From the IMG/VR virus record IMGVR_UViG_2695420718_000008: a stretch of DNA of 20,453 nt. The stretch is one strand, 5' to 3'. Positions 6,923-14,744 of the stretch are shown here, in pieces. Position numbers and translations under genes: made by a program. The DNA comes from a virus. Its lineage: Duplodnaviria; Heunggongvirae; Uroviricota; Caudoviricetes. The notes beneath the pieces were generated by a model that was not told the DNA's origin, ran no database searches, and saw only the letters and a program-made list of their open reading frames with translations. Position 1 is the first letter of the stretch; every line of letters begins with the position of its first letter.

Positions 6923-7609
6923 ATGACCCCAATAAAAATATTTATGACTATTGCTGATTTCAAACGGCCTAAATTGGAGCTCCCAAACGGGGCAAACAAA
7001 CTACTACTGCACTCTTGCTGTGCTCCATGTTCCGGTGAAGTGATGGAGGCGCTTCAGGCCTCGGGAATCGACTACACCATCTTTTTCTACAACCCGAACA
7101 TTCATCCTCAGAAAGAGTATTTAATTCGTAAGGATGAAAATATTCGCTTTGCTGAACAACACGGCGTGCCGTTTATCGATGCTGATTACGACACCGACAA
7201 CTGGTTTGAACGTGCCAAAGGAATGGAATGGGAGCCTGAGAGGGGGATCCGTTGTACCATGTGTTTTGACATGCGTTTTGAGCGGACAGCGTTGTACGCT
7301 GCTGAAAATGGTTTCAGTGTGATCAGCAGTTCACTGGGCATTTCACGCTGGAAAAATATGCAGCAGGTTAACGAGTGTGGGCGGCGAGCTGTTGCGCATT
7401 ATCCGGGTATGGTGTACTGGGATTATAACTGGCGCAAGCAGGGCGGCTCGTCCCGTATGATTGAAATCAGCAAGCGCGAAAAATTCTATCAGCAGGAATA
7501 TTGTGGCTGTGTGTATTCTCTGCGCGATACCAATCTACACCGCAAATCTCAGGGACGCCCTCTTATCAAAATTGGCCAACTCCACTACGGAAAAGAAGAG
7601 AAGGAGTGA
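6923..7609 (+). CDS. QueH-like protein (DUF208, epoxyqueuosine reductase family), prophage cargo
   Basis: 228-aa product with N-terminal [14 protein letters not shown] motif and further Cys residues (CTMCF, CGCVYS), consistent with my recollection of the QueH family; start may be the downstream ATG at 6944. Confidence 0.5.
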
Positions 7610-7739
7610 TTTTATGGATCACCTTTCTGATTGATTTCATATTGGCGAGGTGACGTGAGTTAAGTAGAATGGCTGCGGGTGCTTGAGGCTATCTGTCTCA
7701 GGCATGAACACTGAAAGGCAGATAGAGAAAAGCCCCAGT

Positions 7740-7810
7740 TAACATTTCGCGTCCTGCAAGACGCTTAACATTAATCTGAGGCCCAATCTATGTCTCACAA
7801 ATGTAGGTTA
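7740..7810 (-). ncRNA. predicted Sok-like antisense RNA of the hok locus (position inferred, not sequence-verified)
   Basis: hok-family loci encode an antisense RNA complementary to the leader around the mok start; a minus-strand TTGCCT-N17-TAACCT candidate promoter lies at about 7847-7819. Boundaries are guesses. Confidence 0.25.
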
Positions 7811-7846
7811 GCCTCTTACGTGCCGAAAGGCAAGGGGAAGCAGGCT

Positions 7847-8002
7847 ATGAAGCAGCAAAAGGCGATGTTAATCGCCCTGATCGTCATCTGTTTAACCGTC
7901 ATTGTGACGGCACTGGTAACGAGGAAAGACCTCTGCGAGGTACGAATCCGAACCGGCCAGACGGAGGTCGCTGTCTTCACAGCTTACGAACCTGAGGAGT
8001 AA
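7847..8002 (+). CDS. hokD: Hok/Gef-family type I toxin (HokD/RelF-like)
   Basis: 51-aa product MKQQKAMLIALIVICLTVIVTALVTRKDLCEVRIRTGQTEVAVFTAYEPEE matches remembered HokD; an in-frame upstream ATG at 7790 (MSHKCRLASYVPKGKGKQA) is mok-like; the leader 7676-7790 resembles the hok mRNA 5' end (GCTTGAGGCT...). Confidence 0.85.
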   Translation: MKQQKAMLIALIVICLTVIVTALVTRKDLCEVRIRTGQTEVAVFTAYEPEE

Positions 8003-8070
8003 GAGACCCGGCGGGGGAGTAATCTCCCGCCACCTCTGATGTGCCAGGCATCCTCAACGCACCCGCACTT

Positions 8071-8093
8071 AACCCGCTTCGGCGGGTTTTTGC
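8071..8093 (+). terminator. rho-independent terminator after hokD (copy 1 of a duplicated terminator)
   Basis: AACCCGCTTCGGCGGGTTTTTGC: stem CCCGC/GCGGG, loop TTCG, T-run. Confidence 0.65.
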
Positions 8094-8103
8094 ATTAGTC
8101 TGG

Positions 8104-8132
8104 TTGACAAAAATAGAAAAATGCGAAAATAT
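8104..8132 (+). promoter_or_regulatory. putative sigma70 promoter for the two-gene cassette
   Basis: Perfect -35 TTGACA (8104-8109), 17-nt spacer, weak -10 AAATAT (8127-8132); 35 bp upstream of the 8168 ATG. Confidence 0.3.
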
Positions 8133-8167
8133 GTGGTTTACGAATTCTAAAAAAAGCGAAACTTGAA

Positions 8168-8818
8168 ATGAATGAAAATCAGTTAGCTCCTTGTTGGGAA
8201 TTTCAACCTTATCTTGCTGAAAACTATGTTCGCCACTTGTTGGCGGAGATCGCTAACGTACTTGAGCAGCTGTACTATCATAAGCACGCATTAGACAGCA
8301 ACTGGTCTGAAGGTGTAAGGGCTTATGATTGGGTCAGAAATCATCTTATTCAAAATGAAGATGCAATTCCTGGCCTTGAGATGATTTCCAAGGGGTTGGA
8401 CTATGTAGTTGCTTTAAATAAAGTTCCGCTACAATTTACCAAAGATTGCATTAATAACCCCAAAAAGAAACATCGTCTGCGTCGAAATAAAGTAGAGTAT
8501 GAGCAGCTCTCATTGTTTGGTGATGTTGAGGCTGAGCAAGATATTACATGGCGAGTCATAGCTGAGCCTTTTTTATCCGAAGAGGGCGATGGTGAATTAG
8601 AGTCCACACTGCCTCGTTGGGAGGTAGCTCTTGTTGGATTTAATACTTATGGTGCTCAGATTAGTATAGTTTCTCATCAATCTACAGCATCGATGCCGCT
8701 TATGCCTCTTGATTATAACACACTCCCTGACGAAGCGGAGATTAATAAGGTGCCTCTTCGTCGGCGTACGAAGGATAAAGATTTGGATGTGAGCAGTGAT
8801 GGAACATCAGGTGAATAA
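8168..8818 (+). CDS. hypothetical protein (216 aa), first gene of the AT-rich cassette; candidate effector/toxin partner of the downstream HTH-peptidase
   Basis: Track ORF; product MNENQLAPCWEFQPYLAENYVRHLLAEIANVLEQLYYHKHALD...; low GC; 3' end overlaps the start of the next gene by about 20 nt. No family recognised. Confidence 0.6.
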   Translation: MNENQLAPCWEFQPYLAENYVRHLLAEIANVLEQLYYHKHALDSNWSEGVRAYDWVRNHLIQNEDAIPGLEMISKGLDYVVALNKVPLQFTKDCINNPKKKHRLRRNKVEYEQLSLFGDVEAEQDITWRVIAEPFLSEEGDGELESTLPRWEVALVGFNTYGAQISIVSHQSTASMPLMPLDYNTLPDEAEINKVPLRRRTKDKDLDVSSDGTSGE

Positions 8819-9902
8819 CTTCACTGAGTATCGGGGTGATAAGCTCAAACTAGCGAGAATGGCTGTTGGGCTTTCTTGTGAAGAGTTAGCCGAAAAAATT
8901 GGCAAGACAAAGCAATTCGTTAGCAAACTGGAGAAGGGGTGCAGGCCATCGGAGCAATGTCTTGAGTTAATATCTTCAGCGCTTATGATTAAGTCCAGTT
9001 TTCTTTTTACTGAACGAAAATACGCTCTGGAAAGTGATGTCTGCCATTTTCGGAGTAAGAAGTCCAGGACTCAAACGCTGACTAATAGTGTATTGGCCAG
9101 GGCTGAGATTCTTAATATTATAATTTCTGCTGTTGAAGGTGAAATCGAATTTCCTGACGTTAACATACCGGAGCACCCAGGGGCTGAATTACTTACTCCG
9201 AATGATATTGAGCGAGTGGCAGAAGATTGTCGCCGTGCCTGGAATTTAGGTCTTGGCCCTATATCATCAATGGTTAAATTGGCGGAGAGTTTAGGGGTAA
9301 TCGTTGCGCATGTTACGGGAGTCGATGATCGTGTTGATGCTTTTACTGTTCACAATAACAGGCCTGTTATCATCAGGAACAATGTTAAAAAAAGCATATG
9401 TAGATTTCGCTCTGATTTAGGTCATGAATTAGGGCATTTAGTAATGCATGAGGGCATAACGACAGGTGATAAACTTACGGAATCACAAGCCGATCACTTT
9501 TCGAGCGCCTTATTAGTTCCCAGGTTATCTTTCATTAAAGAATTTCCACGAATACGAGGTAAGCAATTCGACTGGAATGCTCTGGTTGAATTTAAACTTA
9601 GATGGAAAATCAGCCTTAAAATGTGTATTTATCGAGCCAGCGCATTAGGCTTATTGACCCAGGAACAGGCAAGAACTGGCTATATGCATCTTAATTCCAG
9701 AGGGTATACGAGAGTTGAACCTGGTGATGAACTTTTGCGCCCTGAAGAACCCGGCATGCTGGCCGAGGCGATTGAAATGCTGGATGATGCAACCTGGCTA
9801 AGAATTCTTATGAAAACTGGCTTGAGCCAAGATTTAATTCGTGAGTTGTTCTCCATCAACAGACCTATTACAAATCCAAGAAATATTTTCCAGATTGTTT
9901 GA
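8799..9902 (+). CDS. XRE-type HTH fused to ImmA/IrrE-like (COG2856, M78) zinc metallopeptidase
   Basis: N-terminal HTH-like segment LKLARMAVGLSCEELAEKIGKTKQFVSKLEKG; HEXXH motif HELGHLVMHE near residue 210; ATG 8799 (GTG 8796 also possible); overlaps the upstream gene. Confidence 0.7.
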   Translation: MEHQVNNFTEYRGDKLKLARMAVGLSCEELAEKIGKTKQFVSKLEKGCRPSEQCLELISSALMIKSSFLFTERKYALESDVCHFRSKKSRTQTLTNSVLARAEILNIIISAVEGEIEFPDVNIPEHPGAELLTPNDIERVAEDCRRAWNLGLGPISSMVKLAESLGVIVAHVTGVDDRVDAFTVHNNRPVIIRNNVKKSICRFRSDLGHELGHLVMHEGITTGDKLTESQADHFSSALLVPRLSFIKEFPRIRGKQFDWNALVEFKLRWKISLKMCIYRASALGLLTQEQARTGYMHLNSRGYTRVEPGDELLRPEEPGMLAEAIEMLDDATWLRILMKTGLSQDLIRELFSINRPITNPRNIFQIV

Positions 9903-9904
9903 GT

Positions 9905-9927
9905 ATACCCGCTTCGGCGGGTTTTTT
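9905..9927 (+). terminator. rho-independent terminator after the cassette (copy 2 of the duplicated terminator)
   Basis: TACCCGCTTCGGCGGGTTTTTTG; the 19-nt core ACCCGCTTCGGCGGGTTTT is identical to 8072-8090. Confidence 0.65.
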
Positions 9928-10011
9928 GTTTTTATTTTCAACGTGTTTGAAGTTTTGGACGGTGCCAGAATAGAATCAAAAATACTTAAGTAGCGCGCAG
10001 GGAGAAGAGGG

Positions 10012-10233
10012 ATGGACCCCGAACAGGGGGAGTGCTATTTATCTGGAAGGATTCTGTTGATGAAAATCGAAGAATTACGTGAAATTTTTAGTGAAGATGG
10101 CCTCTATGCTGTGCGCGTTGAGAATGGGGGTATTACCTACACAGCGTTAATTCCTGATGATCATGTAGTGTTATCTGTTGAGGCATTCATTGAATACTTG
10201 GAAAGACTCGGTTTCAAGGTAGTTCGGGAATAA
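10012..10233 (+). CDS. hypothetical small protein (73 aa)
   Basis: ATG 10012 preceded by GGGAGAAGAGGG; product MDPEQGECYLSGRILLMKIEELREIFSEDGLYAVRVENGG...; alternative start at MKIEEL. Confidence 0.4.
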   Translation: MDPEQGECYLSGRILLMKIEELREIFSEDGLYAVRVENGGITYTALIPDDHVVLSVEAFIEYLERLGFKVVRE

Positions 10234-10292
10234 GTTATAATACGTGAGCCAGCCTGAACAACTGGCAACCTGCAGCGCCATTGGAGATGACA

Positions 10293-10565
10293 ATGGCGCA
10301 TAATTTCAAATTTCGCAATTCTGATTCTGCCTTTGCCAGCAGGCACGGGTGGCGTTCTCACGCATTCAAATATGACTGGTATCAGCACGATCCCTGTACT
10401 GAAGAACAGGCCGAATGGCTGATTCATAACTACCGCAGACGTGGATATGAGTTTAGGAAAGCCCTCACCCTCGATTATCGTCACTGGATAATCTACGTCA
10501 GACTCCCTTATTCCGAACGCCCACCGCGTCCGTCCCGCACATTCCAGCAACGCATCTGGAGGTAA
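10293..10565 (+). CDS. hypothetical protein (about 90 aa)
   Basis: Track ORF 10281..10565 (TTG start); ATG at 10293 preceded by GGAG; product MAHNFKFRNSDSAFASRHGWRSHAFKYDWYQHDPCTEEQAEWL...; start uncertain. Confidence 0.45.
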   Translation: MAHNFKFRNSDSAFASRHGWRSHAFKYDWYQHDPCTEEQAEWLIHNYRRRGYEFRKALTLDYRHWIIYVRLPYSERPPRPSRTFQQRIWR

Positions 10566-10566
10566 C

Positions 10567-11613
10567 GTGCGGGTATTACTTCGACCTGTTCTGGTACCGG
10601 AACTCGGGCTGGTGATCGTTAAGCCGGGCCGTGAATCCATGCCGGTATTCCACAATACCCGGGTACTGGTGGAGCCGGAACCGAAAAGCATGCGTAATCT
10701 GCCGTCCGGGGTCGTTCCTGCCGTTCGCCAGCCGCTGGCGGAGGATAAATCATTACTGCCATTTTTCAGCGACGAACGAGTGATTCGTGCTGCTGGTGGC
10801 GCTGGCGCATTGTCTGATTGGTTACTGCGCCATGTTAAATCCTGCCAGTGGCCACACGGCGATTATCACCACAGTGAAACCGTCATTCACCGTTATGGTA
10901 CCGGCGCAATGGTGTTGTGCTGGCACTGCGACAACCAGCTGCGCGACCAGACCTCCGAATCACTCGGGCAACTTGCTCACCAAAACCTGTCTGCATGGAT
11001 GATTGACGTCATACGCCATGCAATGAATGGCTCGCAGGAACGGGAATTATCGCTGGCTGAATTATCCTGGTGGGCGGTCCGCAATCAGGTGGCGGACGCG
11101 CTACCGGAAGCGGTATTACGTCGTTCGCTGGGGTTGCGTGCGGAAAAAATCCGCTCAATGTACCGTGAAAGCGACATCGTACCGGGAGAGCAGACCGCCA
11201 CCAGCATACTGAAGCAGCGCACAAAAAATCTTGCGCCGCTGCCTCACGCCCACCAGCAAAACCCGCCACAGGAAGAGACGGTGGTCAGCATTGCCGTTGA
11301 TCCTGAGTCTCCGGAATCTTTCATGAAACGACCTAAACGTCGCCGCTGGGTTAACGAGAAATACACACGCTGGGTGAAGACACAGCCGTGTGCGTGTTGT
11401 GGTAAGCCAGCCGACGATCCCCATCACCTGATTGGTCATGGTCAGGGCGGAATGGGGACAAAATCTCACGATATTTTCACGCTACCGCTGTGTCGGGAGC
11501 ATCACAACGAGCTTCATGCGGATCCTCTGGCGTTCGAAGAAAAGCATGGTTCTCAGGTTGATTTAATTTTTCGTTTTCTTGATCACGCCTTTGCAACTGG
11601 CGTGCTTGGGTAA
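10567..11613 (+). CDS. DUF968 (YdfU-like) prophage protein with C-terminal HNH-like Cys/His motif
   Basis: 348-aa product; C-terminus CACCGKPADDPHHLIGHG...LPLCREHHNELH; GTG start at 10567 with GGAGG upstream; size and position match ydfU next to hokD in Qin. Confidence 0.65.
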   Translation: MRVLLRPVLVPELGLVIVKPGRESMPVFHNTRVLVEPEPKSMRNLPSGVVPAVRQPLAEDKSLLPFFSDERVIRAAGGAGALSDWLLRHVKSCQWPHGDYHHSETVIHRYGTGAMVLCWHCDNQLRDQTSESLGQLAHQNLSAWMIDVIRHAMNGSQERELSLAELSWWAVRNQVADALPEAVLRRSLGLRAEKIRSMYRESDIVPGEQTATSILKQRTKNLAPLPHAHQQNPPQEETVVSIAVDPESPESFMKRPKRRRWVNEKYTRWVKTQPCACCGKPADDPHHLIGHGQGGMGTKSHDIFTLPLCREHHNELHADPLAFEEKHGSQVDLIFRFLDHAFATGVLG

Positions 11614-14491: not shown

Positions 14492-14567
14492 GGCCCTTTA
14501 GCTCAGTGGTGAGAGCGAGCGACTCATAATCGCCAGGTCGCTGGTTCAAATCCAGCAAGGGCCACCA
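14492..14567 (+). tRNA. tRNA with CAU anticodon (Met or lysidine-dependent Ile2; ileZ-like position)
   Basis: Hand-folded cloverleaf: acceptor GGCCCTT/AAGGGCC, T-arm GCTGG-TTCAAAT-CCAGC, anticodon loop CTCATAA, encoded CCA 3' end. Confidence 0.8.
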
Positions 14568-14667: not shown

Positions 14668-14744
14668 GCGTTGTTAGCTCAGCCGGACAGAGCAATTGCC
14701 TTCTAAGCAATCCGTCACTGGTTCGAATCCAGTACAGCGCGCCA
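14668..14744 (+). tRNA. tRNA-Arg (anticodon UCU)
   Basis: Hand-folded cloverleaf: acceptor GCGTTGT/ACAGCGC (one G-U pair), anticodon stem ATTGC/GCAAT with loop CTTCTAA, T-arm ACTGG-TTCGAAT-CCAGT, encoded CCA. Confidence 0.8.

Follow-up and report, generated by a model that had tools for sequence, protein, structure and literature searches.

Identical terminator hairpins at the joints of a RosmerTA cassette beside hok/sok in a lambda-like prophage

The stretch of DNA analysed here, called the window below, consists of 20,453 nucleotides (nt) of a virus of the Caudoviricetes (IMG/VR record IMGVR_UViG_2695420718_000008), and the locus of interest lies in the nin region of a lambda-like (lambdoid) prophage, upstream of DUF968-RusA-Q. 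The genes follow one another in the order QueH, hok/sok, a 216-amino-acid (aa) open reading frame (ORF), a 368-aa ORF with helix-turn-helix (HTH) and Peptidase_M78 domains, a rem-like ORF, a 94-aa ORF, DUF968, RusA and the antiterminator Q (Table 1). The 216-aa and 368-aa ORFs form a cassette that is predicted to be a RosmerTA anti-phage defence system, and the same terminator hairpin closes both the hok module and this cassette. The module order is hok/sok with its hairpin, a putative promoter with rmrT, rmrA and their hairpin, and then rem and the DNA that follows. The original prediction, made from the window alone, took the duplicated hairpin for the possible footprint of an insertion.

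The repeat is formed by the 20 nt ACCCGCTTCGGCGGGTTTTT, which occur identically at 8072-8091 and 9907-9926 with a spacing of 1835 nt; 7400-10600 contains no other long exact direct repeat. The 19-mer ACCCGCTTCGGCGGGTTTT is found exactly twice in the whole window, at 8072-8090 and 9907-9925, both times on the + strand. That a terminator hairpin is repeated on both sides of the cassette, as had been proposed, is confirmed by this exact repeat; of the two positions proposed for it, the left one (8072-8090) was correct and the right one (9906-9924) was off by one base. A terminator scan called both copies as intrinsic terminators with a GC stem of 6-7 base pairs (bp), a TTCG (UUCG) loop and a T-run of five residues on the left and six on the right, the first 20 nt of the right copy being those of the left one. 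The predicted folding energies in 47-nt contexts are -15.1 kcal/mol (left) and -10.9 kcal/mol (right). The left copy lies 70 nt past the hokD stop codon (8000-8002), and the right copy begins 5 nt past the rmrA stop codon (9900-9902). A chance repeat was ruled out, given that none of 100 dinucleotide-preserving shuffles contained any match to the 19-mer; chance is, moreover, the wrong null model for this repeat, because the hairpin is a common functional terminator.

As far as its sequence can tell, the hok/sok locus holds all the parts of such a module, namely the Hok ORF, an overlapping mok, a sok antisense region and a 3' terminator hairpin. It is a mosaic unit with the hairpin as its right edge, the homology to all compared loci spanning from about 7657 to 8092. 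In an Rfam scan, sok alone was above threshold, and the weak matches to rsmX and isrK at both hairpins are terminator look-alikes. Beyond the left hairpin, the cassette starts with a leader (TTGGTTGACAAAA...GCGAAAATAT.TGGTTTAC) that is conserved among cassettes of 80% nt identity in other slots. A strict sigma-70 promoter scan made no call at this leader, and its TTGACA was read from the sequence; the leader may work as a promoter.

Of the two genes of the cassette, rmrT matches phrog_5786 over residues 1-214 (E = 8e-85) besides its PADLOC profile, and a Pfam search with it gave no match. In CP088590.1 it is annotated as a 145-aa protein (L126 4290-4727), whose start is equivalent to position 8381 of the window; the profiles span residues 1-214 of the 216-aa ORF. 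The second gene, rmrA, overlaps rmrT by 23 nt and carries the Pfam domains HTH_3 at residues 17-63 (5e-07) and Peptidase_M78 at residues 177-282 (6e-11). Its ORF starts with GTG at 8796, and the RefSeq annotation, as seen in L126, with ATG at 8799. From the PADLOC and Pfam matches, the pair is assigned to RosmerTA, a defence toxin-antitoxin system in which an ImmA-protease antitoxin is combined with variable toxins (PMC10440598). The arrangement is the same here, with an HTH and M78 antitoxin gene placed after a variable toxin gene and strong profile matches to both; nothing unusual was found in the system itself. Judged by its promoter-like leader, overlapping genes, own predicted terminator, deviant GC content and absence from collinear relatives, the RosmerTA unit is a classical moron. 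The GC content is 0.55 in hok, 0.39-0.45 from about 8100 and 0.53-0.58 in DUF968, and it is still low until about 10350, through the rem-like gene. The low-GC segment that the repeat was thought to bracket has therefore the proposed left edge, but not the right one, as it extends past the second copy.

Table 1. Features of the hok-RosmerTA locus, with positions in the window.
Feature	Position	Strand	Basis or remark
QueH gene	6923-7609		
hok/sok type I toxin-antitoxin module	7657-8092	+	Pfam HOK_GEF E = 3e-23; Rfam sok RF01794, 120.5 bits, 7677-7852
mok-type ORF, overlapping hokD	7790-8002	+	
hokD coding sequence	7847-8002	+	
Left hairpin copy, predicted terminator of the hok transcript	8072-8091	+	Repeat search, terminator scan, fold
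Left copy, stem ACCCGC/GCGGGT	8072-8077 / 8082-8087	+	
Left copy, loop TTCG	8078-8081	+	
Left copy, T-run	8087-8091	+	
Cassette leader, promoter-like	8092-8167	+	-35 TTGACA 8104-8109; candidate -10 within 8125-8135
rmrT, RosmerTA toxin candidate, 216 aa	8168-8818	+	PADLOC RmrT PDLC03929 E = 4.6e-25, residues 7-209
rmrA, predicted RosmerTA antitoxin, XRE-type HTH + ImmA/IrrE (M78) metallopeptidase	8796-9902	+	PADLOC RmrA PDLC03943 E = 6e-105
Right hairpin copy, predicted terminator of the rmrTA unit	9907-9927	+	Repeat search, terminator scan, fold
Right copy, T-run	9922-9927	+	
Resident DNA right of the second copy	9928-10565	+	Directly after the hok hairpin in L002, L016 and other empty alleles
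Promoter-like TTGAAG..TAGAAT	9947-9976	+	
rem-like gene	10012-10233	+	
94-aa ORF	10281-10565	+	Upstream of the DUF968 gene
DUF968 gene	10567-11613		

The arrangement hokD...DUF968 is found without the cassette in thousands of genomes, and in about 80 hok-linked loci the hairpin is single and directly adjoins resident DNA, either of the rem type or without rem. In the empty alleles L002 and L016, ...GGGTTTTT is directly followed by GTTTTTATTTTCAACG..., and the DNA after their single hairpin is the DNA that stands after the second copy in the window. BLAST aligns L016 with the window in two segments, whose overlap of 21 nt lies at the hairpin, and the segment 8092-9926 is absent from the empty alleles of the order hok-hairpin-rem/orf94-DUF968. 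The alignment with hokD...DUF968 relatives that the original prediction had proposed thus gives one hairpin at the empty site (L016, L002 and about 80 others), and the cargo boundaries that it had put at 8091-9924 are right within 2 nt, the insert being 8092-9926/9927. L016 was also considered as an isogenic empty site and rejected in this role: its 94-aa ORF and DUF968 gene are 100% identical to those of the window, yet the whole flanks are only 95.6% and 96.4% identical.

The cassette is present together with its hok flank in 237 of 5426 complete Escherichia coli genomes, with hokD under the match in every case listed; E. coli 042 and ABU 83972 are examples of strains that carry it. It is also found with the hok flank in Escherichia albertii, which was the only species returned by a scan of genome contigs with RmrA. 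Two records filed as plasmids match the cassette, and the one retrieved (L126) has the same prophage context. A search of E. coli, plasmids and GenBank phages found no copy of the cassette outside the hok slot. Within the matched hok-cassette stretch, IS5- and IS3-family insertions are seen in the alleles H1 (NZ_CP069459.1) and H82 (NZ_AP045810.1), which are otherwise 100% identical.

RosmerTA is not the only cargo of this site. In a census of the slot that covered 133 hok-linked loci (1.29 Mb), at least six cargos are closed by a second hairpin: three RosmerTA types, an HTH and M78-like pair, a Doc/Fic module and a 130-aa lipoprotein. The suggestion to look for other cargo between such repeats has thus been fruitful, unrelated cargos being bracketed by two copies at the same site. 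A 290-nt AT-rich insert in the slot has a single hairpin. The alleles with the lipoprotein cargo (L127, L130, L131, L158, L197 and L231) have a left copy that is cut to the 13 nt ACCCGCTTCGGCG, followed by T6, and does not fold. In these alleles the hok transcript would probably read into the lipoprotein gene, and the broken hairpin would alter the 3' end of the hok mRNA, on which hok/sok control depends. In L170 and L225, the loop of the hok hairpin holds an insertion of 22-32 nt that forms a hairpin itself, L225 reading ACCCGCTTC, AGCGCTGATTTATGGGGATCCCTCAGCGCTTC and GGCGGG in succession. In L025, the DNA right of the second hairpin is homopolymer-like noise (GGGGTTTTTTTTTTTTTTTTCACG...), probably due to a sequencing or assembly error at the contig end and not a real variant.

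Where the closing copy comes from can be judged from relatives of the cargos in other places. Among 32 loci (244.5 kb) with non-hok relatives of RmrA from viral contigs, the exact core of the hairpin occurs six times, always right after the rmrA stop codon and nowhere else; a seventh occurrence, in L255, is not counted, as this contig lacks the upstream flank and its hok status cannot be scored. In the cassettes of 80% nt identity in other slots, the homology runs from TTGGTTGACAAAA to the rmrA stop codon (8094-9902 of the window), and they have terminators with the ACCCGC/GCGGGT stem and other loops, the identical hairpin being found in L270; some of them also have a hairpin of the same stem just upstream. 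Of 31 loci with relatives of the Doc cargo (65-75% identity) that lack a hok flank, 16 have the exact core. Because RosmerTA and Doc relatives in non-hok contexts end in the same hairpin, the closing copy travels with the cargo; on this comparative evidence, it belongs to the cargo module and is not a target duplication.

These data bear directly on the footprint proposed originally, in which a hairpin-targeting element or enzyme (of the IS200/IS605 type, the group IIC-intron type or an integron-like one acting on folded DNA) would have duplicated the hok terminator. An exact 20-nt direct repeat around an insert that is absent from relatives is what such an event could leave, and the T-run lengths of the two copies tend to fit the local flank type. 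However, the relatives in non-hok contexts already end in the hairpin or in the same stem with no upstream copy, and at the hok site one cargo has a truncated left copy and others have none. The repeat has no fixed length, as a target duplication would require: the left copy measures 13 nt with the lipoprotein cargo and is missing in L168, and right copies include variants with TACG or CCTC loops. Besides, the domains found in the insert are only RmrT and HTH+M78, with no transposase or other recombinase, integrase or reverse transcriptase among them, and the repeat search of 7400-10600 found no terminal inverted repeats around the segment. Neither a hairpin-specific recombinase acting in trans nor a de novo insertion that duplicates the hairpin was seen here. 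We consider a true insertion footprint very improbable.

The comparison of cargos and flanks locates the junctions. In at least nine combinations of cargo and flank, the DNA after the closing copy is that found behind the single hairpin of an empty allele; the hairpin joins the Doc cargo to at least six right flanks, and RosmerTA-1 and RosmerTA-3 to two each. Beyond the hok-adjacent copy, in turn, the DNA falls into at least 12 classes, which part from one another inside the T-run. Repeatedly, not a single cargo-specific base follows the closing hairpin, nor does any resident base precede the cargo; this is expected for crossovers in a shared hairpin, but not for random joins in an intergenic space of about 100 nt. 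The idea that recombination took place at or with the terminator has gained ground in this way, since the junctions lie exactly at the hairpin in many combinations. In our opinion, it is rather probable that the two hairpins are the terminators of neighbouring accessory modules which share a portable rho-independent terminator and were joined there, probably by short-homology exchange. The simplest account of the arrangement in the window is such an exchange: the hok-hairpin-RosmerTA-1 unit (94% identity over 7654-9932) exists elsewhere with a closing hairpin whose loop is TACG and with a right flank that lacks rem.

The left hairpin would provide a proper 3' end for the hok mRNA and a shield for the cassette. 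In the repressed prophage, the right one would keep cassette transcription out of rem, DUF968, RusA and the gene of the late activator Q. Since the same hairpin of 14-20 nt closes many unrelated cargos, in this slot as well as in other phages, it forms an identity patch at module boundaries, within which rare short-homology recombination or template switching may take place. The crossover could occur between the cargo-borne and the resident copy, or via a circle of cargo and hairpin with the junction ...GAGTAT-hairpin-GCATTAGTC... Either route would allow cassettes to be inserted, deleted or given new flanks while neighbouring transcription is left undisturbed. Phage recombinases drive mosaicism in lambdoid phages (PMC3945230).

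Several points weigh against this reading. The recombination step is deduced from breakpoint positions, and no event was observed. An identity of 20 nt is below the minimum of about 30 bp that is quoted for Red-beta recombination (PMC3945230). No near-identical empty allele exists in the 5426 E. coli genomes, in which the best full-length matches to a synthetic empty site are 92-96% identical; because of this, precise excision is not frequent on short time scales. Some cargos of the slot depart from the pattern, as the HicAB cargo lacks the left hairpin and ends in another terminator, the BOF-protein cargo has no hairpin, and the three-gene cargo of L168 has the right hairpin only. The hairpin is a widespread and probably partly convergent terminator, and selection for intact terminators could contribute to the sharp edges of the modules. 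Finally, the scans of viral contigs comprised at least 120 loci, and their counts are samples.

How widespread the hairpin is can be appreciated from these scans and from E. coli. At least about 90 of the 120 viral loci listed have the exact 19-mer between unrelated flanks, at 30-67% GC. All 5426 E. coli genomes contain matches to the hairpin, at a median of six sites each. One of these sites is the terminator of a core-genome tRNA operon, argX-hisR-leuT-proM; it reads AACCCCGCTTCGGCGGGGTTTTTTG (L229 1195-1225, an E. coli K-12 derivative, downstream of proM) and holds the same 14-nt core plus one extra G-C pair. Many other terminators of the hok-linked phages have the CCCGC/GCGGG stem in common and differ in their loops. 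Because the hairpin is so widespread as a terminator, sequence identity alone is weak evidence. The original prediction was to fall if the repeat proved to be a common terminator occurring irrespective of cargo, and to the letter this is what is found, with the 19-mer in unrelated phages and the core in a tRNA operon terminator of E. coli.

All this would also fit a coincidence of function, in which near-optimal terminators (GC stem, UUCG tetraloop and T-run) arose or were kept independently, modules were joined by random illegitimate events of which only intact recombinants survive, and the hairpin has no role in recombination. The shortness of the repeat relative to the usual homology minimum and the lack of a recent excision product in E. 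coli point the same way. Nevertheless, the core is confined to the slot: in the 1.29 Mb of hok-linked DNA, searched on both strands, its exact 14 nt adjoin hok 101 times (101 of the 133 loci), close a cargo 19 times and occur 0 times elsewhere, while the same DNA has about 216 terminator-like hairpins of other sequence. Independent origin does not account well either for the at least nine cargo-by-flank combinations without cargo DNA after the closing hairpin or resident DNA before the cargo. Moreover, many equally stable stems exist, and an identity of 14-20 nt in unrelated modules exceeds what stability demands. We regard such a coincidence as possible, though unlikely.

Another setting of the hairpin was noticed among the unrelated phage contigs of the viral scan. 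In 33 of the 120 loci listed (L005-L124; for example, L018, L044, L059, L077 and L113, with two copies in L114), at a GC content of 0.37-0.63, the 19-mer is followed by TT(A/T)T(G)CC(C/T)GGAG-N5-8-ATG. The 19-mer with a spacer and a ribosome-binding site precedes many different genes in this way, and it looks like a repeated intergenic element made of a terminator and a ribosome-binding site. Several of the genes behind it are presumably virion genes, as we guess from their N-terminal sequences.

The motif TCTGGTT(T/G)ACAA is shared between the rem-less resident DNA after the hairpin and the left ends of RosmerTA-1 and RosmerTA-2. In shuffle tests the scores were reached in 0-6 of 2000 cases against the rem-less alleles L057, L042 and L048, and against L022 in 16 of 2000 for RosmerTA-1 and 2 of 2000 for RosmerTA-2; over the three main rem-less alleles, five of the six comparisons lay at 0-6. 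It is absent from the other cargos and from the rem-type right flank of the window. A longer repeat unit of terminator and promoter (about 45 nt) was considered on this basis and rejected, as it is significant only for RosmerTA-1 and RosmerTA-2 against rem-less flanks and part of it (ATTAGT.TGGTTGACAAAA) is cassette-borne in other contexts.

The shared motif could also be a scar, if the events ran in the reverse direction, with the two-hairpin state as the ancestral one and the empty alleles as deletions between direct repeats. A deletion between 20-nt repeats is mechanistically easy and leaves exactly one hairpin. Yet empty alleles are far commoner and more diverse than any single filled allele, different cargos are found at the same site, and the lineage of the window has no near-identical empty partner among those searched. 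We think that this direction is improbable; it concerns the direction only and is compatible with the hairpin acting as a joint.

A bolder extension of the joint at the terminator, which we put forward as a speculation with rather low odds of being right, would make one hairpin of 14-20 nt (core CCCGCTTCGGCGGG) a universal joint, attC-like and independent of a recombinase, by which temperate phages of several families connect defence and toxin-antitoxin morons. Units would circularise or switch templates and re-insert beside any resident copy, and the hok slot would be a tandem cassette array that exchanges immunity genes, as a temperate counterpart of PeSL shuffling.

The concept of morons in lambdoid phages, due to Juhala and Hendrix, has been reviewed (PMC3594210), and the RosmerTA unit agrees with it: it adds a transcription unit between two genes that adjoin each other in related phages, with a promoter-like leader, a terminator, deviant GC content and a function (defence) by which a prophage benefits its host. 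The concept requires neither an identical terminator in neighbours nor a terminator as crossover point, whereas in the present case many unrelated morons end in the same hairpin, at which the mosaic junctions also lie. The cassette itself is an ordinary RosmerTA moron; less usual is the use of one identical terminator to close many unrelated modules at mosaic joints. A literature search of incomplete coverage found no paper on this hok slot or on a terminator linker in lambdoid phages.

The closest parallel on record is PeSL (promoter-early stem-loop) in T4-type phages: promoter/stem-loop motifs on either side of ORFs recombine, and the ORFs are lost, gained or circularised, mini-circles being documented (PMC2839356, PMC4122927). 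In both cases, the accessory ORFs of a plastic region are flanked by a short conserved regulatory motif with a terminator stem-loop, which probably insulates their transcription, small-patch homologous recombination is proposed, and the indels or swaps between related phages end in the motif, which here is the hairpin with its T-run. The differences are also clear. The locus belongs to the nin region of a temperate lambdoid phage (QueH-hok-...-DUF968-RusA-Q) and not to a hyperplastic region of T4 type; the motif is a hairpin with T-run of 17-22 nt instead of a composite of promoter and stem-loop of about 50 nt; a shared promoter-like piece is found only for RosmerTA cassettes against one flank type; and the documented mini-circles are those of T4-type phages. 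By analogy, the hok slot works like PeSL without being a member of the PeSL family. Integron gene cassettes (ORF and attC) resemble it in forming an array of promoter-proximal units, each of which ends in an imperfect-palindrome boundary element, but the hok slot has no integrase, a terminator instead of attC, and units with putative promoters of their own, so that the likeness is structural only.

The comparison defines to the base the limits of a slot for defence genes that thousands of E. coli prophages have filled. It also gives a rule for mining new accessory and defence genes, according to which everything from the hok terminator up to the next hairpin of this sequence is cargo. If the hairpin guides recombination, this would explain how immunity modules are swapped in lambdoid prophages while the insulation before Q is kept, and the PeSL idea would extend from virulent T4-type to temperate phages. 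If it does not, the window has an ordinary pair of moron terminators.

Outside the cassette, the slot upstream of the hok module is also variable, as it holds QueH in the window, AbiH and a 463-aa protein in L132 (269-2658), and a RES-domain protein in L231 (96-1475). Downstream of the Q gene, the window has a tRNA-Met(CAT) at 14492-14567 and a tRNA-Arg(TCT) at 14668-14744, and related prophages have tRNA clusters there.

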